Assembly: GCA_025362395.1 (NCBI GenBank)
Contig: JANYGK010000063.1
Coordinates: 28,955 to 92,954 of the forward strand
Length of the DNA: 64,000 bases
Source of the DNA: Bacteroidota bacterium
GTDB taxonomy: Bacteria; Bacteroidota; Bacteroidia; B-17B0; Aurantibacillaceae
Reading direction: 5' to 3'
Positions 3,733 through 60,363 of the stretch are shown here, in pieces. The notes beneath the pieces were generated by a model that searched no databases, had not been told where the DNA came from, and worked only from the letters and a program-made list of their open reading frames with translations. The number at the start of each line of letters is the position of its first letter. The first letter of the stretch is position 1. The position numbers and the translations under genes were made by a program.

Positions 3733-4563
3733 TTAATGGGAATGAAATACAACAAGTGGAATCGATGTGTGATTTGACATGATATTTGTAATACTTCTCT
3801 TCCAAATAGTTTCAGGGAATTTTCTGCTATGTGTTATCATTGAAAGTAAATCCGGTTTTTCTTTTTTTACAAATTCCTCGAGTCCTTCAATAATACTTGA
3901 ATTGGCTTTAATATGAAAAGAAACCTTATCATAGCCGATCTTCTTCTTAATTTCATTAACCAATTTTTGAAGTATACCGGTTGCATCAAAAATATTTAAA
4001 TCCTCTATGTAAACAAATTCTATTTCAGCATTAAACTGTTTGGCAAATACTACTGAATCACTAAAGGCTTTTAAACTATGTTTCTCTAAATCAGTAGCAA
4101 CGGTAACTTTGTAAATGCCTTTAAACTTAGCTTTTGGAGGAACTGCAATAACGGTGCAGGCAGCATCATTTATAATACCGGATGTTGTGCTTCCAAATAA
4201 TGACCTTTCTACAGCTCCTTCACCTGTAGTCCCTAATATTACAATAGAAATTTTATGTTTTTTTATATAGTGAATAATCGTGTCGGTAGCTATACCCGAT
4301 TCCACAATACATTCGGGCTTAATATCAGGAAAAATTTTAAAAAGTGAAGCTGCTAATTCATTCATTTGTTGTTCAGCGCTTTGTCGCCCTTCCATTTTTC
4401 CGATATGAGTATTTGTAAACGGAATATTTAATTCACCGGTCGGACTATCGAATGAATGAAACAAACAAATAGTTGATTCTGTTTTTTGCGCAAAGGCAAA
4501 CGCATACTTAACTGCATTTAATGCATTCTTTGAAAAATCGGTTGGTACAAGAATTGTTTTCAT
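3733..4563 (-). CDS. universal stress protein (tandem UspA domains)
   Basis: 276 aa. Starts MKTILVPTDFS and has two Usp-like halves. Paralogous in length and layout to 35320..36150. Confidence 0.85.
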   Translation of the reverse strand: MKTILVPTDFSKNALNAVKYAFAFAQKTESTICLFHSFDSPTGELNIPFTNTHIGKMEGRQSAEQQMNELAASLFKIFPDIKPECIVESGIATDTIIHYIKKHKISIVILGTTGEGAVERSLFGSTTSGIINDAACTVIAVPPKAKFKGIYKVTVATDLEKHSLKAFSDSVVFAKQFNAEIEFVYIEDLNIFDATGILQKLVNEIKKKIGYDKVSFHIKANSSIIEGLEEFVKKEKPDLLSMITHSRKFPETIWKRSITNIMSNHTSIPLVVFHSH

Positions 4564-4641
4564 AATTTTTTAATGTTAGATAATTTAATTGGAAAGTTAC
4601 AGTCTATACCTCTTTAAAAAGTTATATAACTCTTAAAATGA

Positions 4642-4712
4642 ATTGTATAATTCACAGGTATTTAAAAATTTATGGTATATACACTATTTTGATAATATGT
4701 GAATTATGTAAG
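4642..4712. promoter_or_regulatory. pair of inverted TGTGAATTAT-type motifs in the divergent usp / AI-2E promoter region
   Basis: 4642..4656 is ATTGTATAATTCACA (reverse complement TGTGAATTATACAAT). 4698..4712 is TGTGAATTATGTAAG. Each copy points toward its flanking gene. Related copies occur at 10521, 58164 and 58789. Confidence 0.45.
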
Positions 4713-4804
4713 TTTTATTTTTATTCTATAATACTTTATAACTCTCAATACCTGATTTTTACAAGTTAAAACATGCAACTATTTTAACTAAAAGCTAATT
4801 GTAT

Positions 4805-5881
4805 ATGAACATTACTGCTATATCGGTGATAAAAAAATTACTTTTACTTTTCCTTATTTTTTCAGGATTGTATTTTGCCAAGGCTTTCTTAATGCCTATT
4901 TCAATAGGAGGGGTTTTGGCAACACTCTTTCTACCCTATTGTAGATGGATGGAGAAAAGGAACATACCGAAAGGAGTGGCTGCTTTTATATGTCTTTTAA
5001 CCATCCTCATAATTATAGGCTCAATAGGTTATTTGTTGGTATGGCAAATTTCATCCCTTATGCAGGATTTTGTCTCTATAAAACAAAAAGCGCTTGAAAA
5101 AGGCATATACATTCAGGAATACATATTTAATCATTTAGGTATAGCGATAGAAAAACAATCACAGATTTTTAAGATAGAACAGCCGTCGGTTACAAGTATG
5201 GTTCAAGTAGTTTTAGGATCCTTTAAAGATCTTTTTATTAATATAATTTTGATTATGGCCTATGTTTTTATGTTGCTGTATTATCGTAGTCATATTAAAA
5301 AATTCTTTATAAAGCTTACGCCGCCGGATGAAAGGAAAGAAATGGAACAAATTGTATACAGCTCTACACATGTTGCACAGCAATACCTTTTAGGATTGGC
5401 AAAAATGATTGTGCTCCTGTGGGTTATGTATAGTATTGGCTTTGGAATAATAGGTGTTCACAACTTCATTTTTTTCGCTATTGTTTGCGGGCTTTTAGAA
5501 ATTATTCCTTTTATAGGAAACATTACCGGAACTACAATTACGGTTTTAGTAGCTGCTATTAACGGAGCGGATCTTACAATGCTAATCGGGATTGTTGTAA
5601 CCTATACTATTGTGCAATTTATTCAAAGCTGGATCTTTGAGCCGCTGATAGTAGGGCCACAGGTTAAAATTAATCCACTATTTACAATTTTAGCATTACT
5701 GCTTGGTGAAATTGTTTGGGGCATACCGGGAGTCATCATCGCTATACCAATTACAGCCATGCTTAAAATTACATGTGACCATATAGAAGCTTTAAAACCT
5801 TTTGGGTTTTTAATTGGAGAACTTGATACAGAAAAACCGGGGAAAAATTTCTTATTTAAATTGAAACATTTCTTTAAATAA
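4805..5881 (+). CDS. AI-2E (PerM/YhhT) family transporter
   Basis: Polytopic membrane protein of about 358 aa with the characteristic C-terminal GxxGxxxAIP segment (WGIPGVIIAIPITAM). ATG at 4805 preferred over the TTG at 4799. Confidence 0.8.
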   Translation: MNITAISVIKKLLLLFLIFSGLYFAKAFLMPISIGGVLATLFLPYCRWMEKRNIPKGVAAFICLLTILIIIGSIGYLLVWQISSLMQDFVSIKQKALEKGIYIQEYIFNHLGIAIEKQSQIFKIEQPSVTSMVQVVLGSFKDLFINIILIMAYVFMLLYYRSHIKKFFIKLTPPDERKEMEQIVYSSTHVAQQYLLGLAKMIVLLWVMYSIGFGIIGVHNFIFFAIVCGLLEIIPFIGNITGTTITVLVAAINGADLTMLIGIVVTYTIVQFIQSWIFEPLIVGPQVKINPLFTILALLLGEIVWGIPGVIIAIPITAMLKITCDHIEALKPFGFLIGELDTEKPGKNFLFKLKHFFK

Positions 5882-5883
5882 TA

Positions 5884-7566
5884 GTGGATACTTTCATTCA
5901 TATACTGAAGCTTTGTGCGGGAGTAGGATTATTCCTATTTGCCATGTATCTTATTGAAGAATCGTTAAAAAATCTGTCAGGCAGAAATTTTAAACTTTTT
6001 TTGCAACGCATTACCAAAAATAAATTAGGCGCGGTAACCGGGGGTGCTATTGTAACAGGGGTGCTTCAAAGCAGTTCACTGGTTTCATTAATGGTACTTG
6101 CTTTTGTAGGAGCGGGTGTATTTACCATGAAAAATGCATTGGCAATTATATTAGGTGCAAATTTGGGAACAACCTTAGATAGTTGGTTGGTAGCCACTCT
6201 TGGCTTTAAAACAAATATAGAAGTAGTGGCATATCCGGCAATTTTTGTGGGAGGCTTATTACTTATTTTATTTGGTAAACGAACTTTCGTAAAATATATT
6301 TCCTATTTTTTATTTGGTTTTGGGCTACTATTTATAGGTCTTTCATTTATGAAAACCGCTATGGAGTCTCAGGTTCAGGCCTTTGATTTTTCTCACTACA
6401 CGAAAATGCCATTAGCGGTATTTTTATTAATTGGTTTTTTAATAACCTTATTGGTTCAATCAAGTTCCGTAACAATGGCACTTACACTTACTGCACTTCA
6501 TGTTGGAGCTGTTAACTTTCCTGCAGCGGCAGCTATTGTACTTGGTTCGGAAACCGGAACCACCATTAAATTAGTACTGAGTGGCATTGGTGGAACTGCC
6601 TCAAAAAAAAGGGTTGTATTAGGCAATTTGATATTTAATATAGTCCTCACCTTATTGGCTTTTATATTTATAAAACCTCTTTTGCAATTAATTACTTCTG
6701 TTCTTAATATTACGAGTCCTCTTATTGGATTAGTGACCTTTTCGAGCCTGGTTAATCTGTTTAGTATAGCACTGTTTCTTCCATTTCTAAATCTCTTCGT
6801 TCAATTTCTTGAGAAATTCTTTAAAAACACAGACGTTGCCGGGGCGGCTTTTATTGGACATGCTTCTGTTGAAGAACCACAAACTGCTTTGGATTTATTT
6901 AAAAGAGAGATAAACTATTTTATTTACAACAGTATGCTTCTTAATCTGGAACAGCTTGAAGTTGATGCCGGGTGGTTAAAAGGGAATTCTGACGTAATAA
7001 AGATGAATGAGCGTAAGAAATTCGCCTTAAAAACGACCCCGGAGAAATATGAATTCTTAAAACTTTTACAAGGTGAATTACAAACATTTTATTTATTACT
7101 CAGAACAAAATTGACGGGAGTTCAGTTGGCTGAATTGAGCCAATTGGCTTCTTCCGCCCGTGATAGCATGCACTCCGTAAAGAGCATGAAGGATATTAAA
7201 ACTAATATTACCGATCTTAGTCGCTCTTCCAAAAATATTAAATTCAATGTGTTAAACCTACAAAAAACTCAAACAGAAAATTTATACAAATTATTAAACT
7301 CCTATATAGTGAGTATAGATGCAACCGACTTTGAAAATTTGCAAATGGCATATAGCGACATACAAAAAAACTATAACGACACGCTTACCGGCTTTTACAC
7401 AGACGCTCAAACAACAGCCATTGAAAATATGGATATGACAACCGTTATTAGTTTTAACAGAGAACTCTTCTCATCAAATAAAGCGATGCTAATGGCCGTA
7501 AAAGACTTTTTACTGGACGAAAAACAAGCAGAGGATTTTAATGAAATCCAAGCCGATAATACATAA
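5884..7566 (+). CDS. Na/Pi cotransporter family protein with PhoU-like C-terminal domain
   Basis: Duplicated NptA-type repeats (GANLGTTLDSW and GSETGTTIK) followed by a soluble helical tail. GTG start 2 nt after the AI-2E stop. Confidence 0.85.
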   Translation: MDTFIHILKLCAGVGLFLFAMYLIEESLKNLSGRNFKLFLQRITKNKLGAVTGGAIVTGVLQSSSLVSLMVLAFVGAGVFTMKNALAIILGANLGTTLDSWLVATLGFKTNIEVVAYPAIFVGGLLLILFGKRTFVKYISYFLFGFGLLFIGLSFMKTAMESQVQAFDFSHYTKMPLAVFLLIGFLITLLVQSSSVTMALTLTALHVGAVNFPAAAAIVLGSETGTTIKLVLSGIGGTASKKRVVLGNLIFNIVLTLLAFIFIKPLLQLITSVLNITSPLIGLVTFSSLVNLFSIALFLPFLNLFVQFLEKFFKNTDVAGAAFIGHASVEEPQTALDLFKREINYFIYNSMLLNLEQLEVDAGWLKGNSDVIKMNERKKFALKTTPEKYEFLKLLQGELQTFYLLLRTKLTGVQLAELSQLASSARDSMHSVKSMKDIKTNITDLSRSSKNIKFNVLNLQKTQTENLYKLLNSYIVSIDATDFENLQMAYSDIQKNYNDTLTGFYTDAQTTAIENMDMTTVISFNRELFSSNKAMLMAVKDFLLDEKQAEDFNEIQADNT

Positions 7567-7621
7567 GTACTCCATAAATTAGAATGGTAATTTTATAAAA
7601 ACTCACTTAATATCATAAAAT

Positions 7622-10123
7622 ATGGCTTCAACTAATTTTAATATCAAAGGCCTAAGTCCTGAAGCGGTAAAGGAATCAAGAGAAAAGTACGGATCCAATA
7701 AAGCAGACTATAAAAAAGAAAACGGCTTTATGGATGCGCTTAAAAATATTATCAAAGAACCAATGGTTACTTTATTGCTGGCAGCCTCACTTATTTATTT
7801 TGTGAGCGGTAAAACAGGCGATGGAATTTTTCTAAGCTCTGCCATTGTTTTAGTTTCCGCTATTTCGCTCTATCAGGATTCAAGAAGTAGAAACGCTTTA
7901 GATAAACTAAAAAACCTGACACAACCCAATTGCAAAGTAATACGGGATAACAAAATAGAGGAAATAAAAAGTGAAGATGTTGTTATAGGAGATAGCTTAA
8001 TGGTAGAAGAAGGAACTTTCATCACTGCAGACGGGATCATTGTACACTCTAATGATTTCTCAGTAAATGAATCTATTCTAACAGGAGAATCCTTAGTGGT
8101 TTATAAGGATCAACATAAAGAAGACAATCTCATCTTTCTGGGAACAACTGTATCTAGTGGCTTGGCTATTGCAACCATTACGGCTATCGGCATTCAAACA
8201 CGACTGGGAAAAATCGGAAAAAGCCTGGAGAGTATAAAAGAAGAAAAAACACCTTTGGAATTACAGATTGGTAACTTCGTAAAAATGATGGTCATAGCAG
8301 GTGCTATTGTTTTTTTAGTTGTTTGGGGCCTGAATTATTTTCATTCTCATAATATATTAGATAGTTTATTGAAAGCACTCACACTGGCCATGAGTATTTT
8401 ACCCGAAGAAATTCCGGTTGCTTTTACAACATTTATGGCACTGGGAGCTTGGCGACTGATGAAATCAGGCATCATTGTTAAACAAATGAAAACAGTGGAA
8501 ACCCTAGGCAGCGCTACTATTATTTGTACTGATAAAACAGGAACCATTACTGAAAACAAAATGAGCCTCGCAAAATTATTTGTAGTGTCTTCTCAAAAAA
8601 TATCCGAGCCCGAAACAACACTAAGCGAAACTGAAAAAGAACTGATTACATTGTCCATGTGGTCGAGCGAGCCAATTCCTTTCGATCCTATGGAAATAGC
8701 TCTGCATGCCGCATATTCAAAATTGGGAGTGCGTGATGAACGACCTAAATACAACTTGGTACACGAGTATCCTTTAGGCGGAAAACCACCCATGATGACA
8801 CATATTTTTGAAGACGCTAAACGACATCGGATTATTGCGGCTAAAGGTGCGCCGGAAGCATTAATGAAGGTAAGCAACTTAACCCTTGACGAAACAAAAA
8901 AAATAGAAGAAGCCATTAAAACATTAGCAAAAGAAGGATACCGGGTTTTGGGAGTTGGAGAAACAACCTTTAGTGGAACTGATTTCCCATTGGAGCAACA
9001 GGCATTTAAGTTTAAATTTAAAGGCATTGTCGCTTTTTATGATCCTCCAAAGAAAAACATTCAATCTGTTCTTGAAAGCTTTTACAACGCCGGAATTACC
9101 GTTAAAATAGTAACAGGCGATAATGCTGCTACCACAATAGCCATCGCTAAACAAATTGGATTTAGAGGATATGAGAAAAGCTTGAGTGGTGATGAACTTA
9201 TGAAATTAAGTGATATTGAATTACAAGAAAAGGTGTTAGATACACAAATATTTACGCGTATGTTTCCTGAGGCAAAACTAAAAATCATTAATGCTTTAAA
9301 ATCAAAAAATGAAATTGTAGCAATGACAGGAGACGGTGTGAATGATGGCCCCGCGCTAAAAGCAGCGCATATTGGCGTTGCCATGGGTAAAAAAGGGACA
9401 GAAATAGCTAAACAGGCTGCTTCACTTATTTTAGTGGATGATGATCTTTCTAAAATGGTAGACGCCGTAGCTATGGGCAGAAAAATTTATGCTAATTTAA
9501 AGAAGGCAATTCAGTACATTATCTCCATACACGTTCCTATCATATTAACCGTTTTTATTCCTTTGGCTTTGGGGTGGATTTATCCTAATATTTTTTCTCC
9601 TATCCACATTATCTTTTTAGAATTAATTATGGGACCTACCTGCTCAATCATTTACGAAAATGAACCTATGGAAAAAAATACAATGTTCCAAAAACCAAGA
9701 CCTTTTTCTACCGATTTTTTTAATTGGAAAGAGCTTACAATAAGCATCCTGCAAGGATTAATGATTACTGCGGGCACGCTACTAATGTACCAACTGTCAG
9801 TGGTAAAAGGTTATAGTGAATCACTGACACGAACAATGGTTTTTACAGTTCTTATAATGGCTAACATCGTTTTAACTTTAGTTAACCGGTCTTTTTACTA
9901 TTCCATTATTACAACTATAAAATATAAAAATAATATGGTGCCAATCATGATCATTATCACAATCATTGTTTCAGGACTACTCCTTTATGTGACGCCCTTT
10001 ACAAAATTTTTCCAATTCGAAAAACTGAGCTTTCTTCAATTAGGAGCTTGTGCAATAATTGGTTTCTTATCAGTTATCTGGATTGAATTGGTAAAGTTAA
10101 ACCGAAGAATTAAAAGTCGGTAA
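7622..10123 (+). CDS. cation-transporting P-type ATPase (type II-like, ion specificity unknown)
   Basis: Motifs LTGESL, phosphorylation site ICTDKTGTITENKM and hinge MTGDGVNDGPALK. About ten predicted TM helices. Confidence 0.9.
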   Translation: MASTNFNIKGLSPEAVKESREKYGSNKADYKKENGFMDALKNIIKEPMVTLLLAASLIYFVSGKTGDGIFLSSAIVLVSAISLYQDSRSRNALDKLKNLTQPNCKVIRDNKIEEIKSEDVVIGDSLMVEEGTFITADGIIVHSNDFSVNESILTGESLVVYKDQHKEDNLIFLGTTVSSGLAIATITAIGIQTRLGKIGKSLESIKEEKTPLELQIGNFVKMMVIAGAIVFLVVWGLNYFHSHNILDSLLKALTLAMSILPEEIPVAFTTFMALGAWRLMKSGIIVKQMKTVETLGSATIICTDKTGTITENKMSLAKLFVVSSQKISEPETTLSETEKELITLSMWSSEPIPFDPMEIALHAAYSKLGVRDERPKYNLVHEYPLGGKPPMMTHIFEDAKRHRIIAAKGAPEALMKVSNLTLDETKKIEEAIKTLAKEGYRVLGVGETTFSGTDFPLEQQAFKFKFKGIVAFYDPPKKNIQSVLESFYNAGITVKIVTGDNAATTIAIAKQIGFRGYEKSLSGDELMKLSDIELQEKVLDTQIFTRMFPEAKLKIINALKSKNEIVAMTGDGVNDGPALKAAHIGVAMGKKGTEIAKQAASLILVDDDLSKMVDAVAMGRKIYANLKKAIQYIISIHVPIILTVFIPLALGWIYPNIFSPIHIIFLELIMGPTCSIIYENEPMEKNTMFQKPRPFSTDFFNWKELTISILQGLMITAGTLLMYQLSVVKGYSESLTRTMVFTVLIMANIVLTLVNRSFYYSIITTIKYKNNMVPIMIIITIIVSGLLLYVTPFTKFFQFEKLSFLQLGACAIIGFLSVIWIELVKLNRRIKSR

Positions 10124-10520
10124 GGAATTTTTTTTAATTAAATCATACTATATGTAAGTATTTATATTTACTAACTATAAATTCATTTAAGTATAATTAT
10201 CAAGTCGAAAATTATTCAAACTCAAATCAAAAAAGGATAAAAGCTAAATTAAAATGCAAACTATTTAAAACAGCAAATCGGCAACTTTTAGGATATATAA
10301 AAAGGCTATAATATAATCTTAAAAACATGATGAAGAAAGTAGTTTTACAATCCCTAATTCCTATTATATTGGAATAAAAATCAATAAAGGAAAATTATAA
10401 AAACCATCTCACAAGCCACCGGAACCATAAAGCATTAAAATTTGTTATGAGTATAAAAACAATAAAGTGAGCCATAAAAGAGTTTGGAGATAACATGAGT
10501 GAAGATTACTAAAATTAATC

Positions 10521-10535
10521 CGTGAATTATATAAA
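10521..10535 (+). promoter_or_regulatory. TGTGAATTAT-type motif copy upstream of the BON-domain gene
   Basis: CGTGAATTATATAAA, about 105 nt before the ATG at 10626 and oriented toward the gene. Confidence 0.35.
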
Positions 10536-10625
10536 TTGTTTCATTTATCATGTAACAAATTTGGATTTAAAGCAATCAACTTTGTATCGTTATAAAAAAG
10601 TATTTATAACATAAACTAATTACTC

Positions 10626-11300
10626 ATGAAAACAAACTCAGAATTACAAAAAGACGTTCAGGATGCCATTAAATGGGAACCTTTATTGAATGCAGCAGAA
10701 ATTGGTGTAACCGCCAAAGATGGTATTATCACGTTAACAGGTGTGGTTAATAGCTTCGCCAAAAAATCAGAAGCAGAATCAGCTGCTAAAAATGTAGCAG
10801 GAGTTAAAGCCGTAGTTGAAAAAATTGAACTTAAATTTGGTACCGACTGGACTAAAAAAGATGACAATGAAATTGCTACTGAAGTATTAAATGCCATTAA
10901 ATGGAATTGGGAAGTGCCAAATGACAAATTAAAAGTAAAGGTTGAAAAAGGTTGGATCACTTTAGAGGGTGAATTAAGTTGGAATTTTCAAAAAGAAGCC
11001 GCTAAAAATGCCGTAAAAAATCTTTTGGGTGTAACAGGTGTTTCAAATAATATTACTATTAAAGCTGAATCACATGATGCCGTTGAGGAAAAAGCGGTAG
11101 AGGATGCGCTTGCGCGTAATTGGTCTATAAACGATAGAAATATCCACGTTAAAGCAGACGGCAAAAAAGTAACTCTTACAGGTACAGTTAGCTCATGGTA
11201 TCAAAAAGATGAAGCCGGAAGAATTGCCTGGAATGCACCCGGTGTTTGGACGGTTGATAATAAATTAGAGGTTGAATATGAATATTCATTAATTGATTAA
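10626..11300 (+). CDS. BON domain-containing (OsmY-like) stress protein
   Basis: Three repeats of the BON pattern (for example ITVKDGIITLTGVV, KVEKGWITLEGEL, KADGKKVTLTGTV). Confidence 0.85.
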   Translation: MKTNSELQKDVQDAIKWEPLLNAAEIGVTAKDGIITLTGVVNSFAKKSEAESAAKNVAGVKAVVEKIELKFGTDWTKKDDNEIATEVLNAIKWNWEVPNDKLKVKVEKGWITLEGELSWNFQKEAAKNAVKNLLGVTGVSNNITIKAESHDAVEEKAVEDALARNWSINDRNIHVKADGKKVTLTGTVSSWYQKDEAGRIAWNAPGVWTVDNKLEVEYEYSLID

Positions 11301-11305
11301 TTAGA

Positions 11306-11334
11306 AGCCGGGAGGAAGCCCTTCCGGCTCTTTT
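11306..11334 (+). terminator. rho-independent terminator after the BON gene
   Basis: 10 bp stem AGCCGGGAGG / CCTTCCGGCT (one G-U pair), loop AAGC, followed by a T-rich tract. Confidence 0.7.
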
Positions 11335-11384
11335 AAGGTTTTTAACTCATACTAAAACATGAAATAAATCTTAATAATAAAATA

Positions 11385-11723
11385 ATGATGGTAAAATCAA
11401 TTGTTATAATAAGTATTTTATATTTTAATATGTTAACATTTGCTCAAAAAGCTGTCGATGATTTTACCGGAAAATGGAAAGCACCTAAAGGGGCCATTAT
11501 AATTATTACCAAATCACACACCGGATTTATTGGAAGAACGGAATTAGAAGATGCAATAGTATTGAAAGATGTAAAATTTTATAATGGTAAATGGACTGCC
11601 GTAATTATCAATCCAAAAGAAAATCAGATTGCCAATTGTGAATTAACCCTTCAAGAATTTAAACTAAAAATTATTGCAAAAAAGGGAATATTTTATAAAA
11701 CCTTATTTTGGACAAAACAATAA
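11385..11723 (+). CDS. DUF2147-like small secreted protein
   Basis: Signal peptide, then a GKW...G...W.G...P pattern (FTGKWKAP...FYNGKWTAVIINPKE...LFWTK) typical of DUF2147. Confidence 0.6.
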   Translation: MMVKSIVIISILYFNMLTFAQKAVDDFTGKWKAPKGAIIIITKSHTGFIGRTELEDAIVLKDVKFYNGKWTAVIINPKENQIANCELTLQEFKLKIIAKKGIFYKTLFWTKQ

Positions 11724-11744
11724 ACTAACTATTAAAAAAACCAT

Positions 11745-12218
11745 ATGAAAACAAACATTGGAATTACCGAAAAACATCTGCAAAAAAGCAGTGATATATT
11801 AACAAGCATTTTAGCAGATGAAATGACATTGTATATAAAAACAAGAAAATTTCATTGGAACGTTTCCGGTGAGAGCTTTATGGAGCTACACAAATTGTTT
11901 CAAAGTCAGTATACAGAGCTTGAAGAAGCGATTGATCAGGTAGCTGAGAGAATTGGCAAACTGGGTGAAAAAACGATAGGAACTATGACTGAATTTTTGA
12001 AACATACTTCTATAAAAGAACATGCAGGAAAATATTCTTCTTCAAAAGATTTGATTAAAGAATTACACGCGGATCATCAAACCCTTATTATAAAACTACG
12101 TAAAGACATAGAAGTGTGCAGCGAAAAAAATAAAGATTCGGGTACTGCCGACTTTTTAACGGGTTTAATGGAGCAGCACGAAACTATTGCATGGATACTG
12201 GGTAGATACTTAAATTAA
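11745..12218 (+). CDS. dps: Dps family DNA-protection / ferritin-like protein
   Basis: 157 aa. The FHWNVSG...ELH..F....EE..D..AERI pattern is typical of Dps. Confidence 0.9.
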   Translation: MKTNIGITEKHLQKSSDILTSILADEMTLYIKTRKFHWNVSGESFMELHKLFQSQYTELEEAIDQVAERIGKLGEKTIGTMTEFLKHTSIKEHAGKYSSSKDLIKELHADHQTLIIKLRKDIEVCSEKNKDSGTADFLTGLMEQHETIAWILGRYLN

Positions 12219-35135: not shown

Positions 35136-35319
35136 AGAGCTACATCACTTTAACGCGGTTTGTGAAGGTATGAAATTTGAATGCATTAATCGGTAACGTT
35201 CTTATTAAAGTTAAAAATAATCTTCTTATCAGGAGCCTGACTTTTACGTCCATAATCTATACCGTATCCGTTCATTCCATCGGGTATAATAAATATTATA
35301 CCTTCTAAATTTAATACTT

Positions 35320-43329: not shown

Positions 43330-45090
43330 TTATAATTTTACTTCCGGTTTCTCACCGGTAATAGGCCATTTATTTTCGTAGCCATCCGTAAACGTAACAA
43401 CAGGAATTTGAAAGTAAAACGTAGTCCCTTTTCCTAATTCACTTTTTAAGCCTATGTGTCCATTTTGAGCAATGATAAATTCTTTAGCAATAGCCAATCC
43501 TAAACCGGTTCCGTTTTTATTGCTTCCCGGTATTTGAAAAAACCTGTCAAAGACCTTATCACTATATTTAGGATCAATGCCTTTACCAAAGTCCTGAATA
43601 GAAAACTTAATTAAATCGTTTGTTTGGCTAACATTTATTTTAATGATTTCTTTTTCAGGCGAATAGCGAATGGCGTTGCTCAACAGATTAACCATGACCC
43701 AAGCGGTTTTTTCCAAATCGGCATTTACTCTCGGTAAATTATTTTCTATTTCTAACTCAAGTTTTATATGTTTTTGTTCTGCCTGAAATTTTAAGGACTC
43801 AACGGCATATTTAACAATGTCTTTTGAATCTACCTTTTGAAAATTCAATTGAATCTTTCCTGTTTCAACCTGTGCCATATTCAATACTTCACCGGTAATT
43901 TTTAAAAGTCTTTCAGAATCACCTTTTATATTATTTACCAGTTGTTTTTGCTCTTCATTTAACTCCCCTACTCTAGTGTCTTCCAATAATTTTGAGCTTA
44001 GTTTAATAGATGCAATAGGTGTTTTAAGTTCGTGTGAGATAGTAGCGATAAAATTAGTTTTTGCCAGATCTAATTCCTGAAATTGTGTTATGTTTTTCAG
44101 CAATATTACTTCGCCGATTGGTTTTTCTTCTGAAACAATTGATACATTTTCTTTTGTAAAGTAACTTTCTTTACCGTCTGCAAAAATTTTTATGGGTTTA
44201 ATGGTTAGTTCTTTACTAAGAAGCAGCCTCATTAAATCATTATTTAGCGCTACGTCGGGGGCATATTTACCAACCATATCTTTTTCGTGCATTCCCAATA
44301 ATTGTGCGGCTTTAATGTTAGCAAACAAAACCATCCGTTTTTCATTTAACCCTACAATAGCATCCTTCATATTATTAATGATAGCTTCAATACGTGTTTT
44401 TTCGAAAAGTATTTTCGCAAGATTACTGTTTTCATAGTGTTCGAGTTCTGCCGCCATAGCATTAAAAGCTTCCGCTAATTCTCCAAATTCATCATTAGAC
44501 TTAAAATGCAGGCGTTGATGATAATTTTTATTTGAGATCTGTTTAATACTTACAGTTAATTCCCTGATTGGATCAGCAATATAGCCCGGGAAATTTATAA
44601 TAAATGTAAACACAATAAGAAAGCATAACCCGCCAATGACCCCAATATATGCTAATACCCGCTCAGCTGTTGCCTGCGCCTGGTTATTCTTTCTTAAAAT
44701 GGCCTGCATATTTAAATCTGTTATGTTATAGAGGTCTTTTTTTAACTTTAAAAGGCTTGCGGTTGAAATTGCTTTATTCCTCATGTGGTTAAATTCCAAT
44801 CGTACTTCTGCAGTATAGTCTTTTTCCCCGATCTCAGTTACATTGCTTTCTTGTAATTTCAGAGTTGTATCAAATCTTTTAAAAAACACTGCGCTGTCCG
44901 TATCCGCGGCATCTATATTCTGCATCATTAACTCAGCATATTGTATAGATTCATAGTTATCTTTTAATATTTCTTTCGACTGGTTTGCGATGGTATTTAT
45001 ATAATTGACACCGACACCGCCAATTAATATAATTACGGCAAAGAGAAAACCAAGTCCTAAGCTTAATTTTGTTTTTATTTTTAATTTCAT
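43330..45090 (-). CDS. sensor histidine kinase (C-terminal half of a split KdpD-type sensor)
   Basis: Two TM segments, HAMP, PAS-like segment, H-box FIATISHELKTPI, N-box LLSNAIRYS, G-boxes DFGKGI and GTGLGLAI. Start overlaps the upstream stop in TAATG. Confidence 0.85.
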   Translation of the reverse strand: MKLKIKTKLSLGLGFLFAVIILIGGVGVNYINTIANQSKEILKDNYESIQYAELMMQNIDAADTDSAVFFKRFDTTLKLQESNVTEIGEKDYTAEVRLEFNHMRNKAISTASLLKLKKDLYNITDLNMQAILRKNNQAQATAERVLAYIGVIGGLCFLIVFTFIINFPGYIADPIRELTVSIKQISNKNYHQRLHFKSNDEFGELAEAFNAMAAELEHYENSNLAKILFEKTRIEAIINNMKDAIVGLNEKRMVLFANIKAAQLLGMHEKDMVGKYAPDVALNNDLMRLLLSKELTIKPIKIFADGKESYFTKENVSIVSEEKPIGEVILLKNITQFQELDLAKTNFIATISHELKTPIASIKLSSKLLEDTRVGELNEEQKQLVNNIKGDSERLLKITGEVLNMAQVETGKIQLNFQKVDSKDIVKYAVESLKFQAEQKHIKLELEIENNLPRVNADLEKTAWVMVNLLSNAIRYSPEKEIIKINVSQTNDLIKFSIQDFGKGIDPKYSDKVFDRFFQIPGSNKNGTGLGLAIAKEFIIAQNGHIGLKSELGKGTTFYFQIPVVTFTDGYENKWPITGEKPEVKL

Positions 45091-53418: not shown

Positions 53419-53979
53419 TTATAATGCATTTAAAGCCAAATTTAATTTCAATACATTCACCCTTTCGGGTCCGAAAACTCCTAAAAGCGGATGCTCCGTG
53501 CACTTCTTTACTAAACTATATAATACCTCTTCTTCGCGTTTCCTTAATTTTGCAATTCGCGGCACTTGTATATTTGCTCCTTTAACAGAAATATGAGGAT
53601 CTAAACCGCTGCCGCTTGCAGTAACCAGGTCGCTCGGAATAGTTGATTTTTTAATGCCGGGGTTATGAACCAAAAATGTATCGATACGCGCTTGTACTAT
53701 TGTCAAATAATCGCTGTTAGAACCTCCTTTGTTAGAACCGGCTGAACCTGCCGCGTTATAATTAACAGCTGAAGGCCTGCCCTGAAAGTAATCGTCGTTT
53801 GTAAATTTTTGACCAATATTATCATATCCGACGACTTGGTCATTTTCAAACACTTTTTTGCCATTACCGCCACCCGGGGCAACAAGAGCCATTGCTGCAA
53901 TAAATAAAGGATACAAAGCAGAGCAAATAATAAGGAGAATGCCTGATAGTTTTAAAGAAGGAAGGATGTATGTTTTCAT
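53419..53979 (-). CDS. kdpC: potassium-transporting ATPase subunit KdpC
   Basis: Single N-terminal TM, then VTASGSGLDPHIS and PRIAK motifs typical of KdpC. Confidence 0.92.
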   Translation of the reverse strand: MKTYILPSLKLSGILLIICSALYPLFIAAMALVAPGGGNGKKVFENDQVVGYDNIGQKFTNDDYFQGRPSAVNYNAAGSAGSNKGGSNSDYLTIVQARIDTFLVHNPGIKKSTIPSDLVTASGSGLDPHISVKGANIQVPRIAKLRKREEEVLYSLVKKCTEHPLLGVFGPERVNVLKLNLALNAL

Positions 53980-54024
53980 GTATATGTGTGTTAATATAAA
54001 ATGTGAGATGCAGTATTTTTTTTT

Positions 54025-54117
54025 AATATTGAATGTTTATAAGTGCTAAATTTATTAGTTTATTAGGTGCTCACTCTCACGCTGAACTTAATTCTAGGGT
54101 GACTTTCAACATTATTT
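54025..54117. repeat. short inverted-repeat element (copy C) inside the kdpB-kdpC spacer
   Basis: Left arm AATATTGAATGT. Reverse complement of the right arm AATAATGTTGAAAGT. The core CTGAACTTAATTCTAGGG resembles CTGAACTTATTTCAGGG at 22524..22540. Confidence 0.4.
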
Positions 54118-54131
54118 TTCCATGCCATTCC

Positions 54132-56183
54132 TTAAAAAAATAGTCCCACAGCCAAGTCTATTAATTTAATGCCTATAAAAGGCACAATAACGCCGCCTAA
54201 GCCATATATGATTAAGTTGCGACGTAACAATGCGCTTGCTCCGATAGGCTTGTACTCTACGCCCCGTAATGCCAATGGAATGAGTATGGGAATTATTAGG
54301 GCGTTAAATATTACTGCTGACAGTATAGCGCTTTCGGGTGTTTTTAAATTCATAATATTTAATCCTTGTAATGCGGGAATAGATGTAATAAATAATGCGG
54401 GAACGATTGCAAAATATTTAGCCACATCGTTTGCAATAGAAAATGTAGTAAGTGTACCACGTGTAATTAAAAGTTGTTTTCCTATTTCTACTATTTCTAT
54501 AAGCTTTGTAGGATCGTTATCCAAGTCAACCATATTACCGGCTTCTTTGGCTGCCTGGGTTCCGCTGTTCATCGCTACACCAACATCGGCCTGCGCTAGA
54601 GCGGGAGCATCGTTTGTGCCGTCGCCCATCATTGCCACCAGCTTGCCTTGCTGTTGCTCATTTTTAATGTAGTTCATTTTATCCTCGGGTTTAGCCTCTG
54701 CAATAAAATCGTCAACCCCGGCTTTCTCTGCAATAAATTTGGCAGTTAAAGGATTATCACCCGTAACCATTACTGTTTTAATTCCCATTTTGCGTAAGCG
54801 TTCAAACCGTTCCCGGATACCGGGTTTAATAATATCCTGCAATTCAATAACACCAATTACTTTTTCGTTTTCACAAACCACTAAGGGCGTACCCCCATTG
54901 CTTGAAATTAGTTTTACTCTTTCCGCAATTTCACCCGGGAAGTTATTCCCTGCTTTTTCACATAATTTTTTTATAGAATCGGAAGCACCTTTCCTGATGC
55001 GGATTTTACCGGCTTCATAATCAATACCGCTGCTACGCGTTTCTGCCGTAAACTTTATAAATTGAGGATCTTCTGTTTCAAATTCCGATTTAGAAAATCC
55101 TGATAATTCTATAATTGATTTTCCTTCGGGTGTTTCATCAGAGATAGAACTTAGTGCGCAGGCTTTAATAAATTGTTTTTCACCTATACCGTGAGCCGGG
55201 TAAAAATGGGTGGCCTTTCTGTTACCTATGGTAATTGTACCGGTTTTATCTAAAAGCAATACATCAATATCACCGGCTGTTTCAACCGCTTTGCCTGATT
55301 TAGTAATTACGTTTGCCCTTAATGCCCTATCCATGCCGGCTATACCGATAGCGGAAAGTAAGCCGCCGATGGTAGTTGGTATTAAACACACAAATAAGGA
55401 AATTAACGCAGCTATTGTAATAGGTGTATTTGCATAATCGGCAAAGGGTTTTAAGGTGACACAAACAATTATAAATACTAATGTAAAGCCCGCTAACAGA
55501 ATAGTTAAAGCTATTTCATTAGGTGTTTTTTGCCTGCTTGCTCCTTCTACCAAAGCAATCATTTTATCTAAAAACGATTCGCCCGGCTCCGTTGTTACTT
55601 TAACTATAATTCTATCACTTAATACTTTTGTACCTCCGGTAACCGAACTTTTATCTCCGCCGGCTTCACGAATAACAGGAGCGCTTTCCCCCGTTATAGC
55701 CGATTCATCTATTGTTGCTAAGCCATGAATAATTTCGCCGTCTGTTGGAATCGTATCTCCTTCAATGCAGAAAAAAAGATCATTTTTTTTCAGTTGTGAA
55801 GAGGGAATAATCTCCAAATGATCAGAATCCATTTTATTTGGATCTACTACTTTTTTAGCAGGAGTTTCTTCCCTGGTCTTTCTGAGTGATTCTGCCTGCG
55901 CCTTGCCGCGCGCTTCTGCAATGGCTTCCGCGAAATTGGCAAATAAAAGTGTTAGGAGTAATACAAAAAATACAACTACGTTATATGTCAAACTTCCTTG
56001 TGAACCGTTATTGTTAAATAGAATACTGATGCATACATATAACATAACGCATGTTCCTATTTCAACCGTAAACATCACAGGGTTTTTTATCATCTGCTTT
56101 GGATTGAGTTTGATGAACGATTGTATAAAGGCCTCTGATATAAGCTCTTTCTGAAACAATGATTTATTTTGAGAAGGGGTCAT
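54132..56183 (-). CDS. kdpB: potassium-transporting ATPase subunit KdpB (P-type ATPase)
   Basis: LLLDKTGTITIGNR phosphorylation site, ITGESAPV, MVTGDNPLTA, MGDGTNDAPALAQADVG. Confidence 0.97.
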   Translation of the reverse strand: MTPSQNKSLFQKELISEAFIQSFIKLNPKQMIKNPVMFTVEIGTCVMLYVCISILFNNNGSQGSLTYNVVVFFVLLLTLLFANFAEAIAEARGKAQAESLRKTREETPAKKVVDPNKMDSDHLEIIPSSQLKKNDLFFCIEGDTIPTDGEIIHGLATIDESAITGESAPVIREAGGDKSSVTGGTKVLSDRIIVKVTTEPGESFLDKMIALVEGASRQKTPNEIALTILLAGFTLVFIIVCVTLKPFADYANTPITIAALISLFVCLIPTTIGGLLSAIGIAGMDRALRANVITKSGKAVETAGDIDVLLLDKTGTITIGNRKATHFYPAHGIGEKQFIKACALSSISDETPEGKSIIELSGFSKSEFETEDPQFIKFTAETRSSGIDYEAGKIRIRKGASDSIKKLCEKAGNNFPGEIAERVKLISSNGGTPLVVCENEKVIGVIELQDIIKPGIRERFERLRKMGIKTVMVTGDNPLTAKFIAEKAGVDDFIAEAKPEDKMNYIKNEQQQGKLVAMMGDGTNDAPALAQADVGVAMNSGTQAAKEAGNMVDLDNDPTKLIEIVEIGKQLLITRGTLTTFSIANDVAKYFAIVPALFITSIPALQGLNIMNLKTPESAILSAVIFNALIIPILIPLALRGVEYKPIGASALLRRNLIIYGLGGVIVPFIGIKLIDLAVGLFF

Positions 56184-56195
56184 AGTAACTAATAA

Positions 56196-57896
56196 TTAAT
56201 GATGGTATAGGGTGAAATACTCTGCTAAAGGCCCAAGGACTAAAGCAGGGAAAAAGGCCAACGCCGCTATGATCATAATAACGGCATAGGTCATAATGCC
56301 AAATGTTCCTGTATCTGTTCTTAATGTTCCCGCTGATTCGGGGATGAATTTTTTGCGGGCTAAAATTCCTGCAATAGCAACCGGACCTATGATTGGCAGG
56401 AACCGCCCAATAATTAATACAAAACCAGTTGTAATATTCCAAAACCAATTATTATCTCCGAGCCCTTCAAAACCACTGCCGTTATTAGCTGCGCTTGATG
56501 TATATTCATACAACATTTCGGAAAAGCCGTGATACCCGGGATTATTTAACCAACCTACCGAGGGATCTTTAGTATACATATAAGAGGAAATTGCGGTACC
56601 GACTAAAATTAAAAACGGATGAAGTAACGCAATCATCGTTGCTATTTTCATTTCACGCGCTTCTATTTTTCTTCCTAAAAATTCGGGAGTACGGCCAACC
56701 ATTAAGCCTGAAATAAATACAGCTATGATCATAAAAATATAATAGTTTAAAATACCTACACCGCATCCGCCGTAAAAAGCGTTTGTCATCATTCCCAATA
56801 ATTGCATAGTTCCGGAAACAGGCATAGAGCTATCATGCATGGAATTAACAGACCCTGTTGAAATAATGGTGGTAAGCACACTCCAGTAAGCTGATGCACT
56901 TGCTCCAAAACGGACCTCTTTCCCCTCCATACTTCCTCCACTCTGGTCAATTCCCATTTTTGTAATAGCAGGATTACCCGATGTTTCAGCAATCATTGTA
57001 GGAATCAAAAAAGAAATCATACCTATGGTCATAACTCCAAAAATAACATAAGCCATTTTTTTTCGGTTAAGATAAAATCCTAATGCAAATATTAATGCTA
57101 ACGGAATTAATACCTGTGCAATCATCTCTACCATATTGGTAAGGTAGTTTGGATTCTCTAAAGGGTGAGCTGAGTTAGCTCCAAACCAACCGCCACCATT
57201 GGTTCCAAGGTGTTTAATACCTATCATACCGGCAGCGGGGCCACGCGATACCTGAACTGTATCACCCTGTAATGTATGAATGGTATCTTTACCCGCAAAG
57301 CTTGCCGGCGTTCCGTTAAATACAAGAATTAATGCTATAATACTACTTACAGGCAGTAAAATACGTGTAATTGATTTAAGGAACATGTCGAAGAAATTAC
57401 CAAGCCCTTCGGTTGTTTTTTCCTTCATGGCATTAAACACTACTATTAACGCTGCTATACCCGTTGCCGCAGAAACAAATTGCAAGAAGGCGATAACGGC
57501 TAATTGGGTCAGGTAGGTTAAGCCTGTTTCCCCGGAGTAATGTTGTAAGTTGCAATTAACTACAAAACTTATAGCCGTATTAAAACTTAAATCCGGGCTC
57601 ATGGATGGATTGCCGTCGGGATTAAGGAATAAACTGCCCTGTGTTAACAGCATGATAAATGCGTAAACAAACCACAATATATTAATTGAGAGCAATGCAA
57701 TTAAATGTTGTTTCCAATTCATTTGTTTTGTACTGTCGATACCGCATAAGCGAAAAATCGTTTTTTCTACAGGGATGAGAAAATCAAGAATTGTCTTTTC
57801 TCCTTTAAAAACTTTTACAATGTATTTACCAAACGGTATTGCTATTACTATTGTAATTATAAATGTGGCAATAACGCCAATCAATTCTGTATTCAT
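56196..57896 (-). CDS. kdpA: potassium-transporting ATPase subunit KdpA
   Basis: 566 aa polytopic protein with KdpA selectivity-filter-like segments (NCNLQHYSGE, LGTNGGGWFGANSAHP, ANNGSGFEG). Confidence 0.97.
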   Translation of the reverse strand: MNTELIGVIATFIITIVIAIPFGKYIVKVFKGEKTILDFLIPVEKTIFRLCGIDSTKQMNWKQHLIALLSINILWFVYAFIMLLTQGSLFLNPDGNPSMSPDLSFNTAISFVVNCNLQHYSGETGLTYLTQLAVIAFLQFVSAATGIAALIVVFNAMKEKTTEGLGNFFDMFLKSITRILLPVSSIIALILVFNGTPASFAGKDTIHTLQGDTVQVSRGPAAGMIGIKHLGTNGGGWFGANSAHPLENPNYLTNMVEMIAQVLIPLALIFALGFYLNRKKMAYVIFGVMTIGMISFLIPTMIAETSGNPAITKMGIDQSGGSMEGKEVRFGASASAYWSVLTTIISTGSVNSMHDSSMPVSGTMQLLGMMTNAFYGGCGVGILNYYIFMIIAVFISGLMVGRTPEFLGRKIEAREMKIATMIALLHPFLILVGTAISSYMYTKDPSVGWLNNPGYHGFSEMLYEYTSSAANNGSGFEGLGDNNWFWNITTGFVLIIGRFLPIIGPVAIAGILARKKFIPESAGTLRTDTGTFGIMTYAVIMIIAALAFFPALVLGPLAEYFTLYHH

Positions 57897-57914
57897 TTTT
57901 TGATAATTACGATA

Positions 57915-57992
57915 TTAAAATTTTTCAGGCTTCAGTAAAACATAAACCAGGTAACCAAAAACCATCATAGCTAAAATAAGTAGTATTGTCAT
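57915..57992 (-). CDS. kdpF: K+-transporting ATPase subunit F (KdpF), 25 aa
   Basis: Hand translation MTILLILAMMVFGYLVYVLLKPEKF. The C-terminal LLKPEKF is typical of KdpF. Lies 18 nt upstream of kdpA. Below the ORF-track cutoff. Confidence 0.8.
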   Translation of the reverse strand: MTILLILAMMVFGYLVYVLLKPEKF

Positions 57993-58002
57993 AAGTTATA
58001 TT

Positions 58003-58095
58003 TTATATATTTTCTAAAAAGTCAATGCTTTTGGCGAAAAGCCAAAAGCAGAATAAACCGGATGCTATAAGCGTAATTGATAAAAGAGTTTCCAT
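58003..58095 (-). CDS. possible second small hydrophobic peptide (30 aa) at the head of the kdp operon
   Basis: Hand translation METLLSITLIASGLFCFWLFAKSIDFLENI, one TM-length segment. Its stop lies 10 nt before the kdpF ATG. Confidence 0.35.
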   Translation of the reverse strand: METLLSITLIASGLFCFWLFAKSIDFLENI

Positions 58096-58140: not shown

Positions 58141-58181
58141 CAATTGTATAATTTTGTGTAATATTTACACAATTCACATAC
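58141..58181 (-). promoter_or_regulatory. kdp upstream control region: 17 bp perfect palindrome plus TGTGAATT-type motif
   Basis: TGTGTAATATTTACACA at 58155..58171. The reverse complement of 58164..58178 is TGTGAATTGTGTAAA. AATTATACAATT (reverse complement of 58142..58153) is identical to part of the 4642 site. Confidence 0.45.
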
Positions 58182-58214
58182 TTTTAGAGTGAGATTTTAT
58201 TACACTATTATTAA

Positions 58215-58641: not shown

Positions 58642-58758
58642 TTAAGTAGTTAATACTATTCTAACCAATAAGCCAACGGCAGCCAATACAATAAATAGTC
58701 CATGTATAATGTGATGCGATTGAATATTATTCTTTTCTAATACGTTTAAAATTTTCAT
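58642..58758 (-). CDS. possible small membrane peptide (38 aa)
   Basis: Hand translation MKILNVLEKNNIQSHHIIHGLFIVLAAVGLLVRIVLTT. It ends 10 nt before the start of the 138 aa ORF. Preceded by a TGTGAATT-type motif at 58789..58800. Confidence 0.3.
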   Translation of the reverse strand: MKILNVLEKNNIQSHHIIHGLFIVLAAVGLLVRIVLTT

Positions 58759-58889
58759 TTTAATGAAGTTGAATTGATGCTATCATGCCAATTCACATAC
58801 CTAAACCGGGTAAGGGTGTATAATCATCCCTACTCTGTTTATTTTCAACATATTACAAAAATGACGAAGGATTTAATAAAAGTAAAAAA

Positions 58890-58928: not shown

Positions 58929-60281
58929 TTATTTTTCTATATGATACTCCTCCATTTTTCGATAAAGTGTTGTTAAGCCAATTCCGAGTAATTCAGCGGC
59001 TTTGGTTTTATTACCTTTTGAGAATAGCAATATTTTATTGATATGAATTTTCTCCATACCGGCAAGGCTTGTAATAGAGTTATCTGCAACTGAACATTCA
59101 TTATTTAATATTTCCACCGGTAATAAATCACTAGTAAGGGTTTCACTTTCGGCTAATATTACTGCTCTCTCAATACAATTTTTTAATTCCCTGATATTTC
59201 CTTTCCATTCATTTTTCTTTATAAGATTCAAGAAATCCTTATCAATATGTGAAACGCGTTTTTTAAGTTTTATAGAATATACATTTAAAAAATGCAGGGC
59301 TAATTTTTCAAGGTCTTCTTTTCTTTCTTTTAAAGAAGGAATAATAATTTTAAACGTTGCAAGCCTGTAGTATAAATCTAACCTAAAGTTTTCCTTTTCG
59401 CTTTCCTTTTTTAAATTGCGGTTAGTTGCTGCAATTACTCTTACATTAACCTTTGTAGGTTTTGTATCTCCTACCTTTATAAAGGTTTGTGTTTCTAAAA
59501 CTCTTAGCAATTTAGCCTGAAGTTCAAGATTCATTTCTCCCATTTCATCCAAAAAAATAGTTCCTTCATTTGCTTCTTCAAACAAACCTTTTTTATCGGC
59601 AAAGGCACCGGTAAAAGCTCCTTTTTTATGCCCGAATAATTCGCTCTCCAGTAAATCTTTTGCAAAAGAACTGCAATTAACCGCTACAAACGAATTATTT
59701 TTTCGCGGGCTGCCATAATGAATGGCCTGTGCAAACAATTCTTTTCCTACTCCGGTTTCTCCTTCTAAAAGTACTGTCGAATCAGTTGGGGCTACTTTTT
59801 TTGCCAGTGAAACAGTACTTTTTATCGCTTCTGAATTTCCAATAATAATATCAAAACCATATTTAGCCTCCAACTTATATTCCAGTTCGTAAATACGCTT
59901 TTGTAATTTAATTTTATCTGCGGCACGGTTTAATGCAGGAATAATCTGATCGTTATCATCCCCTTTTGTAAAATAGTCAAACGCCCCCAATTTTATTGCT
60001 TTAACACCATCCTGTATGGTACTAAAGGCAGTCATAACAATAATTTCACAAACAGGATTAATTTCTTTTATTTTTTCTAAAATATCAATTCCGTTCCCGT
60101 CAGGCAGCTTAACATCTGTTAAAATTATATCAATATTCTTTTCACGCTGAATAACTTTTAATCCCTGAGCTATATTAGCTGCTTCAATAACATTAAAGCC
60201 GTCTAAAGAAATTATTCGTGTAAGTAATTGACGAAATTTTTCTTCATCATCAATGATTAGTATATTGGGTGTTGACATCAT
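58929..60281 (-). CDS. sigma54-dependent (NtrC-family) response regulator, presumed partner of the split KdpD sensor
   Basis: REC domain (ILIIDDEE...TDVKLPDG), AAA+ sigma54-interaction domain (GETGVGKE, GAFTGA, ESELFGH), C-terminal Fis-type HTH (AAELLGIGLTTLYRKM). ATG at 60281 preferred over the TTG at 60320. Confidence 0.9.
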   Translation of the reverse strand: MMSTPNILIIDDEEKFRQLLTRIISLDGFNVIEAANIAQGLKVIQREKNIDIILTDVKLPDGNGIDILEKIKEINPVCEIIVMTAFSTIQDGVKAIKLGAFDYFTKGDDNDQIIPALNRAADKIKLQKRIYELEYKLEAKYGFDIIIGNSEAIKSTVSLAKKVAPTDSTVLLEGETGVGKELFAQAIHYGSPRKNNSFVAVNCSSFAKDLLESELFGHKKGAFTGAFADKKGLFEEANEGTIFLDEMGEMNLELQAKLLRVLETQTFIKVGDTKPTKVNVRVIAATNRNLKKESEKENFRLDLYYRLATFKIIIPSLKERKEDLEKLALHFLNVYSIKLKKRVSHIDKDFLNLIKKNEWKGNIRELKNCIERAVILAESETLTSDLLPVEILNNECSVADNSITSLAGMEKIHINKILLFSKGNKTKAAELLGIGLTTLYRKMEEYHIEK

Positions 60282-60363
60282 ATAATTAAGTAACGATACA
60301 AATTTGAGAAAATAAATCAATATAGTTTATAAATTTTTATCAGGACGAAAGTAAAAAAATCAC

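Follow-up and report, generated by a model that had tools for sequence, protein, structure and literature searches.

The window, by which we mean the whole stretch of 64,000 nucleotides that was analysed, comes from a Bacteroidota genome assembled to 4.08 Mb in 118 contigs, with a G+C content of 36.5%. A gene for a tandem-domain universal stress protein (Usp) and an operon encoding an AI-2E family transporter, a Na/Pi cotransporter and a P-type cation ATPase are read away from each other, the genes of the latter being separated by gaps of 2 and 55 nt. Beyond the operon lies a non-coding stretch of about 390 nt (10124-10516), upstream of the conserved element (module copy 3 in Table 1) that precedes the genes for a BON-domain (OsmY-like) protein, a 112-aa ORF and a Dps/ferritin-like protein. 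The kdp genes are found farther along on the minus strand and are followed by porin, CorA and porin genes; kdpA and kdpC were recognised by Pfam, and an ORF of kdpB size is taken as the putative kdpB. Two small hydrophobic peptides precede kdpA, one of 30 aa (METLLSITLIASGLFCFWLFAKSIDFLENI, 58003-58095) and a KdpF-like one of 25 aa, and they are conserved in all of the 5-6 loci of relatives for which small ORFs were listed.

Table 1. Genes, module copies and putative core promoter elements. Positions are those of the window, except where the prefix C51 marks those of the contig that carries it; offsets are counted from the first T of TGTGAAT.
Feature	Position	Strand	Details
Tandem-domain universal stress protein gene (target)	3733..4563	-	Pfam Usp, 2.6e-30
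Putative usp -7 box, GTAACTTTC	4591..4599	-	TTT starts 61 nt after first T of TGTGAAT
Module copy 1, facing usp	4620..4660	-	taccTGTGAATTATACAA-ttcattttaaga-GTTATATAACt; 28.1 bits with the relatives-trained matrix
Module copy 2, facing AI-2E/Na-Pi/P-type ATPase operon	4694..4733	+	TGTGAATTATGTAA-N11-ATTCTATAAT
Operon: AI-2E family transporter, Na/Pi cotransporter, P-type cation ATPase	4799..10123	+	Pfam
Module copy 3, facing BON - 112-aa ORF - Dps	10517..10557	+	aatcCGTGAATTATATAA-N12-ATCATGTAACa; 23.6 bits
Putative canonical -7-type box of BON, CAACTTTG	10578..10585	+	TTT at offset 60
BON-domain (OsmY-like) protein, 112-aa ORF, Dps/ferritin-like	10626..12218	+	Pfam BON 4.5e-49, Ferritin 1.8e-28
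kdp genes: 30-aa peptide, KdpF-like 25-aa peptide, kdpA, kdpB-sized ORF, kdpC	53419..58095	-	Pfam KdpA, KdpC
Module copy 4, kdp leader	58142..58182	-	agtaTGTGAATTGTGTAA-N12-ATTATACAATt; 23.8 bits
AraC-family gene (cassette gene 1)	C51:21522-22115		Likely start at second Met, giving 187 aa; Pfam HTH_18, HTH_AraC
PAS-HisKA-HATPase-receiver kinase with C-terminal extension (cassette gene 2)			
144-aa receiver-only protein (cassette gene 3)			

A first-pass annotation of this DNA had described a recurrent motif that points at stress and ion-homeostasis genes, and the strings that it quoted are present where, and on the strands on which, it placed them. With at most one mismatch allowed, five matches to TGTGAATTRTRYAA were counted in the window, where 0.61 would be expected; none of 100 shuffles reached five. 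The 8-mer TGTGAATT alone showed no enrichment in the window (5 observed, 4.2 expected) and was rejected as a stand-alone motif. Exact copies of TGTGAATTRTRYAA number four in the genome; three of these are intergenic, and all three are in this window. The reported orientation towards genes was borne out genome-wide, as all nine intergenic matches with at most one mismatch face a gene start.

Alignment of the copies in this genome revealed a second box 12 nt downstream, giving the full form TGTGAATTATRYAA-N12-ATTATRTAAC, and a genome scan for both boxes returned six intergenic, gene-directed sites at the top, with several others on the same contig. TGTGAATTRTRYAA is thus the distal half of a module of about 36 nt, TGTGAAT-nA-TGTAA-N11/12-AATtnTGTAAC, and the TGTGAATT core belongs to the outer half of this two-part element. 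When 41 related genomes were searched, the strict two-box pattern was found in 11 of them, with 25 copies in one genome and none for the reversed control. In a phylum-wide draw of 401 genomes it matched 13 (reversed control, 0), and since these were so few, the strict pattern is too insensitive to serve for a distribution map. The relatives' sites, 27 in number, have in common aAAtG-TGTGAAT-nA-TGTAA-N11/12-AAT-tn-TGTAAC-N~22-cAcCTTTG, and 236 modules yield an identical profile.

In order to score sites independently of this genome, we used a 41-column matrix whose training set consisted of 25 sites, none of them from this genome. Modules were counted from 12 bits upwards; expectations were computed from base composition, and the reversed pattern and reversed matrix served as controls. 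Scanning the whole genome with this matrix gave ten matches of at least 12 bits, all ten of them intergenic and facing a gene start. At 20 bits or more there were nine, against 0.03 expected, and the reversed matrix gave no match even at 15 bits or more. It could still be argued that similarity by chance, a dispersed repeat or a mobile element accounts for such sites, given that the genome is AT-rich and that TGTGAATT on its own is not enriched. The probability of this explanation is practically negligible in view of the excess over expectation, the uniform intergenic position and orientation, and the preservation of the module upstream of orthologous usp and BON genes and across orders. A dispersed repeat, which the first-pass annotation had itself raised as an objection, is contradicted by the spacers between the boxes, which vary from copy to copy while the boxes alone are conserved.

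Six sites had been listed by that annotation, and the matrix scores separate them. Those facing usp, the AI-2E operon, BON and kdp are modules, whereas the remaining two are not. Copies 1 and 2 stand back-to-back, separated by 41 nt; copy 2 matches the strict two-box pattern exactly, reaches 30.5 bits if a spacer shorter by 1 nt is allowed, and has a TTTTT run at offset 58-62. For the kdp copy, 0.008 matches of its score are expected genome-wide, and ATTTA is found at the -7 offset. A string from the usp site, AATTATACAATT, had been noted to recur in the kdp leader; it is present there, but what had been taken for a repeat is the proximal box, the second of the two that make up the kdp module. 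In all four copies a TTT lies at offset 58-61 after the first T of TGTGAAT. The start codons follow 83-107 nt after that T, within the 40-110 nt previously estimated, and the BON start codon lies about 40 nt beyond the -7-type box CAACTTTG. At usp (CTTTC), the AI-2E operon (TTTTTAC) and kdp (ATTTAT), the putative -7 box departs from the TTTG form. By eye, no sigma-54 promoter was seen within the four module regions. Between the two boxes of the kdp module there is a perfect 17-bp palindrome, TGTGTAAATATTACACA (58155-58171). It may serve as an operator in its own right, perhaps one for the sigma-54 activator encoded nearby.

The site at 58789-58800 on the minus strand scores -47.7 bits and has no second box, and the one at 35161-35175 on the plus strand, put forward earlier as a weaker candidate before a second usp, scores -59.9 bits; by these scores, both are chance matches to the TGTGAA core. 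Two matches in coding regions, at 44997 and 11637, also had negative matrix scores. At 58789-58800, TGTGAATT sits in a different conserved element, upstream of a unit encoding a 38-aa peptide and a DUF7674 protein. The closest relative has GGTATGAGAATTGGCAT at this element (TGAGAATT), so TGTGAATT is not conserved there. Another relative has TGGAACGTTATTGGCAT (TGGAACGTTATTGGCA), a GG-N10-GC arrangement like that of a sigma-54 -24/-12 promoter, and the spacing in this genome is one nucleotide longer. A sigma-54 promoter at 58780-58800 is possible on this evidence; a gene for an NtrC-type sigma-54 activator lies directly upstream of the element (58929-60320), and rpoN is present twice in this genome. 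The 38-aa peptide (58642-58758, minus strand) is a His-containing membrane peptide and is kept in three relatives of the same genus.

The internal symmetry of the module bears on the kind of protein that would bind it. The unit AATnnTGTAA occurs twice in the same orientation with a period of 21 nt, the distal unit being extended to TGTGAAT. When the profile over 236 modules is compared directly with itself, the similarity is likewise greatest at 21 nt (r = 0.50). A distance of 21 nt corresponds to two helical turns. Within each repeat unit, two sub-elements are spaced by about 9-10 nt. The module has in addition a dyad component at its centre, TAACT-N9-AGTTA (inverted self-similarity, r = 0.46), so the number and orientation of the bound subunits cannot be read from the sequence alone. 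The first-pass annotation had likened the site to a Crp/Fnr operator, in which the TGTGA half-site would be bound by a cNMP-domain dimer. That pentamer does resemble the CRP half-site, but the likeness ends with it. None of the window copies has a TCACA at N6 downstream of TGTGA, nor does the consensus built from 27 to 236 sites, so that TGTGA has no dyad partner here; the dominant symmetry is instead the direct repeat, and the orientation towards the gene is strict (10/10 in this genome). We consider a Crp/Fnr operator hardly credible.

Downstream of the repeat units, about 22 nt separate the end of the proximal TGTAAC from the cAcCTTTG box. This is the place where a -33 element would fall, and the proximal unit would therefore lie in the -33/-35 region of the putative promoter. 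The TTT of this box is invariant in 25 of the relatives' sites, at a fixed offset from the module that the TTT of the putative usp box shares. In PMC7366714, the -7 consensus of the housekeeping sigma factor of Bacteroidota is cited as TAnnTTTG, and the cAcCTTTG box fits this element as it is given there. The spacing between the module and the -7 box is rigid and the orientation strict, features which argue for an activator rather than a repressor as the protein that would act here. Just past the -7 box, at offset +70 to +89 from TGTGAAT, the inverted distal box ATTCAC was enriched in the fetched loci: 27 of their 228 modules have it there, whereas 10-nt bins at other offsets hold 1-4 each. 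It was not found at any of the four copies in the window.

The module recurs class-wide, in many Bacteroidota, and the genes that follow it form a general-stress-like set. Among the first genes downstream of 92 distinct modules in the relatives, the most frequent families were Ice_binding (8), AraC (5), porin-type barrels (5), receiver proteins (4) and CsbD (4); PAS histidine kinases (3), YtxH (3), ferritin/Dps (2), rubrerythrin (2), DUF5670 (2) and PPK2 (1) were rarer. Usp, BON, kdp and the transporter operon were not among the recurrent target families of these 92 modules. Elsewhere in the present genome, modules face genes for an 85-aa protein rich in His, a membrane protein accompanied by YceI and a porin, a PhnB-like protein and a Cys-rich, DUF326-like protein resembling a four-helix bundle, as well as a DUF488-like gene with a uracil-DNA-glycosylase-like neighbour (both assigned by eye). 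One more target is a thioredoxin-like gene behind a 275-nt leader: the module at C51:21161-21201 on the minus strand is followed by about 275 nt with no credible ORF (C51:20887-21160), which could form an extended leader or encode a small RNA.

The copies in the window differ in how far they are conserved. Relatives of usp gave five loci, one of them informative, and the usp/AI-2E module pair is conserved in one locus, from a metagenome-assembled genome, whose Usp is 77% identical. Before a BON orthologue with 84% identity, the equivalent position is occupied by a module that scores 18.6 bits; in homologues with 62% and 41% identity the BON module is absent, and in a further relative the contig ends there. 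No module was found upstream of kdp in six other kdp-bearing genomes, two of which are module-rich; of the genomes searched, this one alone has the kdp copy. The proposal of a common candidate regulon joining usp, the AI-2E/Na-Pi/P-type ATPase operon, BON-Dps and kdp is supported by the oriented and non-random module, and we propose that in this genome the regulon also takes in cation and potassium transporters.

A candidate for the regulator is encoded on the same contig, 4.4-7.4 kb upstream of the window, in a three-gene cassette consisting of an AraC-family gene, a gene for a PAS hybrid kinase, whose C-terminal extension we take to be an HPt domain, and a gene for a receiver-only protein (Table 1). 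Modules lie on both flanks of this cassette, and two congeneric species have a module at the kinase gene itself. Upstream of this genome's own araC no module was found, the best score there being -13 bits. A second AraC paralogue, 55% identical, is encoded on another contig (C53:125820-126380, minus strand), 3 kb from a module at C53:122656.

The module and the AraC gene occur together across the relatives. An AraC homologue is present in 24 of the 41, among them all 11 genomes that have the strict pattern, and the pattern is absent from all 17 relatives that lack the homologue. Using a sequence profile (R1) to count modules per genome, we found at least three matches in 15 of the 24 genomes with an AraC homologue and in 1 of the 17 without; the related genomes are non-independent samples, and these co-occurrence counts overstate the significance. 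The one exception, G015, is of the same genus (89% complete, 460 contigs) and has 13 profile matches with no AraC orthologue detected; either araC is missing from the assembly or the exception is real. Two profile matches each were found in G012 and G028, in which there is likewise no AraC orthologue, and nine genomes with an AraC homologue hold 0-2 modules.

The two are also located together. A sample of 80 loci amounting to 0.62 Mb, fetched solely because they encode an AraC orthologue, was drawn from Flavobacterium, Prolixibacteraceae, Chitinophagaceae, Cytophagales, Saprospiraceae, Lutibacter and others. In these loci 142 modules of at least 12 bits were found against about 0.06 expected, with none for the reversed matrix, and 70 of the 80 contain a module. 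In 42 of them araC is preceded, at 30-150 nt, by a module on its own strand; cultivated examples are Flavobacterium fluvii DSM 19978 and F. urumqiense CGMCC 1.9230, where the distance is about 51-55 nt. Downstream of araC a PAS kinase gene was observed in 44 loci and a receiver-only gene in 41. The AraC protein itself has more than 8000 cluster representatives and is 78-82% identical across orders, and the databases annotate it as 'AraC family transcriptional regulator' and nothing further. In an AlphaFold2 model (pLDDT 86), residues 1-62 form an N-domain of beta-alpha-beta-beta-alpha-beta topology, which a linker helix joins to a seven-helix AraC domain. Among solved structures, the modelled DNA-binding domain is closest to output domains of the AraT/YesN type, GadX, AdpA, MarA, SoxS and AraC. 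The predicted N-domain weakly resembles metallochaperones of the HMA fold (TM about 0.67 relative to the target, E = 0.06-0.2), and an invariant MVSxRC is found where the metal-binding MxCxxC would be.

These data also bear on the suggestion, made in the first-pass annotation, that the motif is a promoter element of an alternative sigma factor. TGTGAAT/TGTAAC and CTTTG would then be the recognition elements of an ECF-type sigma, a reading which would account for the rigid geometry including that of the downstream box; Bacteroidota encode many such factors. The upstream blocks, however, are separated from the downstream box by about 22 and 47 nt, against the 16-18 nt of a -35/-10 spacing, and no sigma factor is among the 25 most frequent families of the 92 target genes. 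Moreover, the gene that co-occurs with the module and is most often its own target encodes an AraC-type regulator and not a sigma factor, and the downstream box, at its fixed distance, matches the housekeeping -7 element TAnnTTTG as cited in PMC7366714. An ECF-type promoter is, in our view, very improbable.

Another DNA-binding protein, such as a response regulator of the LytTR type, might instead bind the module, araC being merely one of its frequent targets. Bacteroidota have many LytTR regulators, whose sites are 9-bp direct repeats with a 12-bp (12-13-bp) spacer. The 21-nt period of the module equals this geometry, which is common to AraC-type sites as well and so does not discriminate between the two. 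Other observations that would suit such a protein are the module-like matches in G015, G012 and G028 in the absence of an AraC orthologue, a module target in one relative that resembles a stand-alone LytTR protein (judged by eye), and the lack of a module before this genome's araC. On the other hand, the sole DNA-binding family among the recurrent first-downstream genes is AraC (5/92), the module precedes araC in more than half of the AraC-centred loci, and the AraC protein is conserved as strongly as the motif. The distance between the sub-elements of the repeat unit would also suit an AraC domain with its two helix-turn-helix motifs. We regard binding by a LytTR-type or other protein as unlikely.

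We consider it quite likely that the module is a bipartite activator site, with a promoter-distal and a promoter-proximal part, for class II activation of a stress regulon by the AraC-type protein. Class II activation in the AraC/XylS family is known from araI1-araI2 of E. coli araBAD, XylS at Pm and RhaS at rhaBAD. There as here, two direct half-sites are repeated at an interval of about 21 bp, the orientation is strict, and the regulator has two helix-turn-helix motifs. In those systems the proximal half-site abuts or overlaps the -35 region, to which the putative -33/-35 position of the proximal unit would correspond. The present system differs in that the regulator carries a 62-residue HMA-like N-domain in place of a cupin or sugar-binding domain, is encoded beside a hybrid kinase and a receiver-only protein, and would serve a stress set rather than a catabolic operon. 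The module also adds a central dyad, and the putative core promoter is of the -7 TTTG type of Bacteroidota.

A similar comparison can be made with the marbox of MarA, SoxS and Rob. The marbox, too, is asymmetric and of the AraC type; it spans about 20 bp, and one helical turn separates its two recognition elements. It obeys rules of orientation and distance to the core promoter and serves a stress regulon, and the fold predicted for the DNA-binding domain here matches those of MarA (1bl0) and SoxS (7w5w). In contrast to the marbox, there are two units per promoter, and the regulator has an extra N-domain and a presumptive link to a phosphorelay. The best sequence and predicted-fold matches to the DNA-binding domain were the output domains of response regulators of the YesN/AraT type (6swi, 3lsg, 12aw). 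As in these and in the hybrid two-component systems of Bacteroides, kinase and receiver are neighbours of the regulator; here, however, the receiver is encoded by a gene of its own and no such domain is part of the AraC protein.

Based on these comparisons, two AraC molecules would bind the two direct-repeat units, the proximal one beside the core promoter, and the bound protein would recruit RNA polymerase in the class II manner. Its activity would probably be set by the PAS hybrid histidine kinase (receiver and HPt) and the receiver-only protein. What the data show directly is the module with its geometry, orientation and conservation, and its association with the AraC gene in occurrence and location; we infer that the AraC protein binds the module and activates transcription and that the kinase relay controls it, and any signal would likewise be a matter of inference.

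In content, the target set overlaps with the regulons of RpoS in E. coli, SigB in Bacillus and EcfG-NepR-PhyR in Alphaproteobacteria; the overlap comprises OsmY/BON, Dps, Usp, CsbD and YtxH as well as ferritin-like and small membrane proteins. Those responses depend on an alternative sigma factor, whereas here an activator would work with what is apparently the housekeeping sigma. To our knowledge, Bacteroidota have no RpoS, SigB or PhyR. We found no description of the motif or of the regulator in the literature, and a full-text literature search returned no general stress regulator of Bacteroidota. It is probable that the module identifies a general stress regulon that has so far gone undescribed and is governed by a small regulator of the AraC type.

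A more far-reaching reading is that Bacteroidota mount a general stress or dormancy response through one highly conserved AraC activator, a split phosphorelay (PAS hybrid kinase, HPt domain and separate receiver protein) and a rigid 70-nt module, kdp and the ATPase/Na-Pi/AI-2E operon having been newly added in this organism; to this we would give an even chance. New promoter modules would here extend the regulon to kdp, atop a control of the sigma-54 type, and to the cation ATPase/Na-Pi/AI-2E transporter operon. Usp, BON/OsmY, Dps, the P-type cation ATPase operon and Kdp are predicted to be induced together in this genome, and such joint induction would tie ion homeostasis to the stress programme. 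With a candidate regulator and a sensor kinase named, the question of what replaces RpoS or SigB in Bacteroidota becomes directly testable, and with a cis-element that is recognisable from sequence, the stress regulon would become predictable in thousands of genomes, whether environmental, cold-adapted or host-associated.
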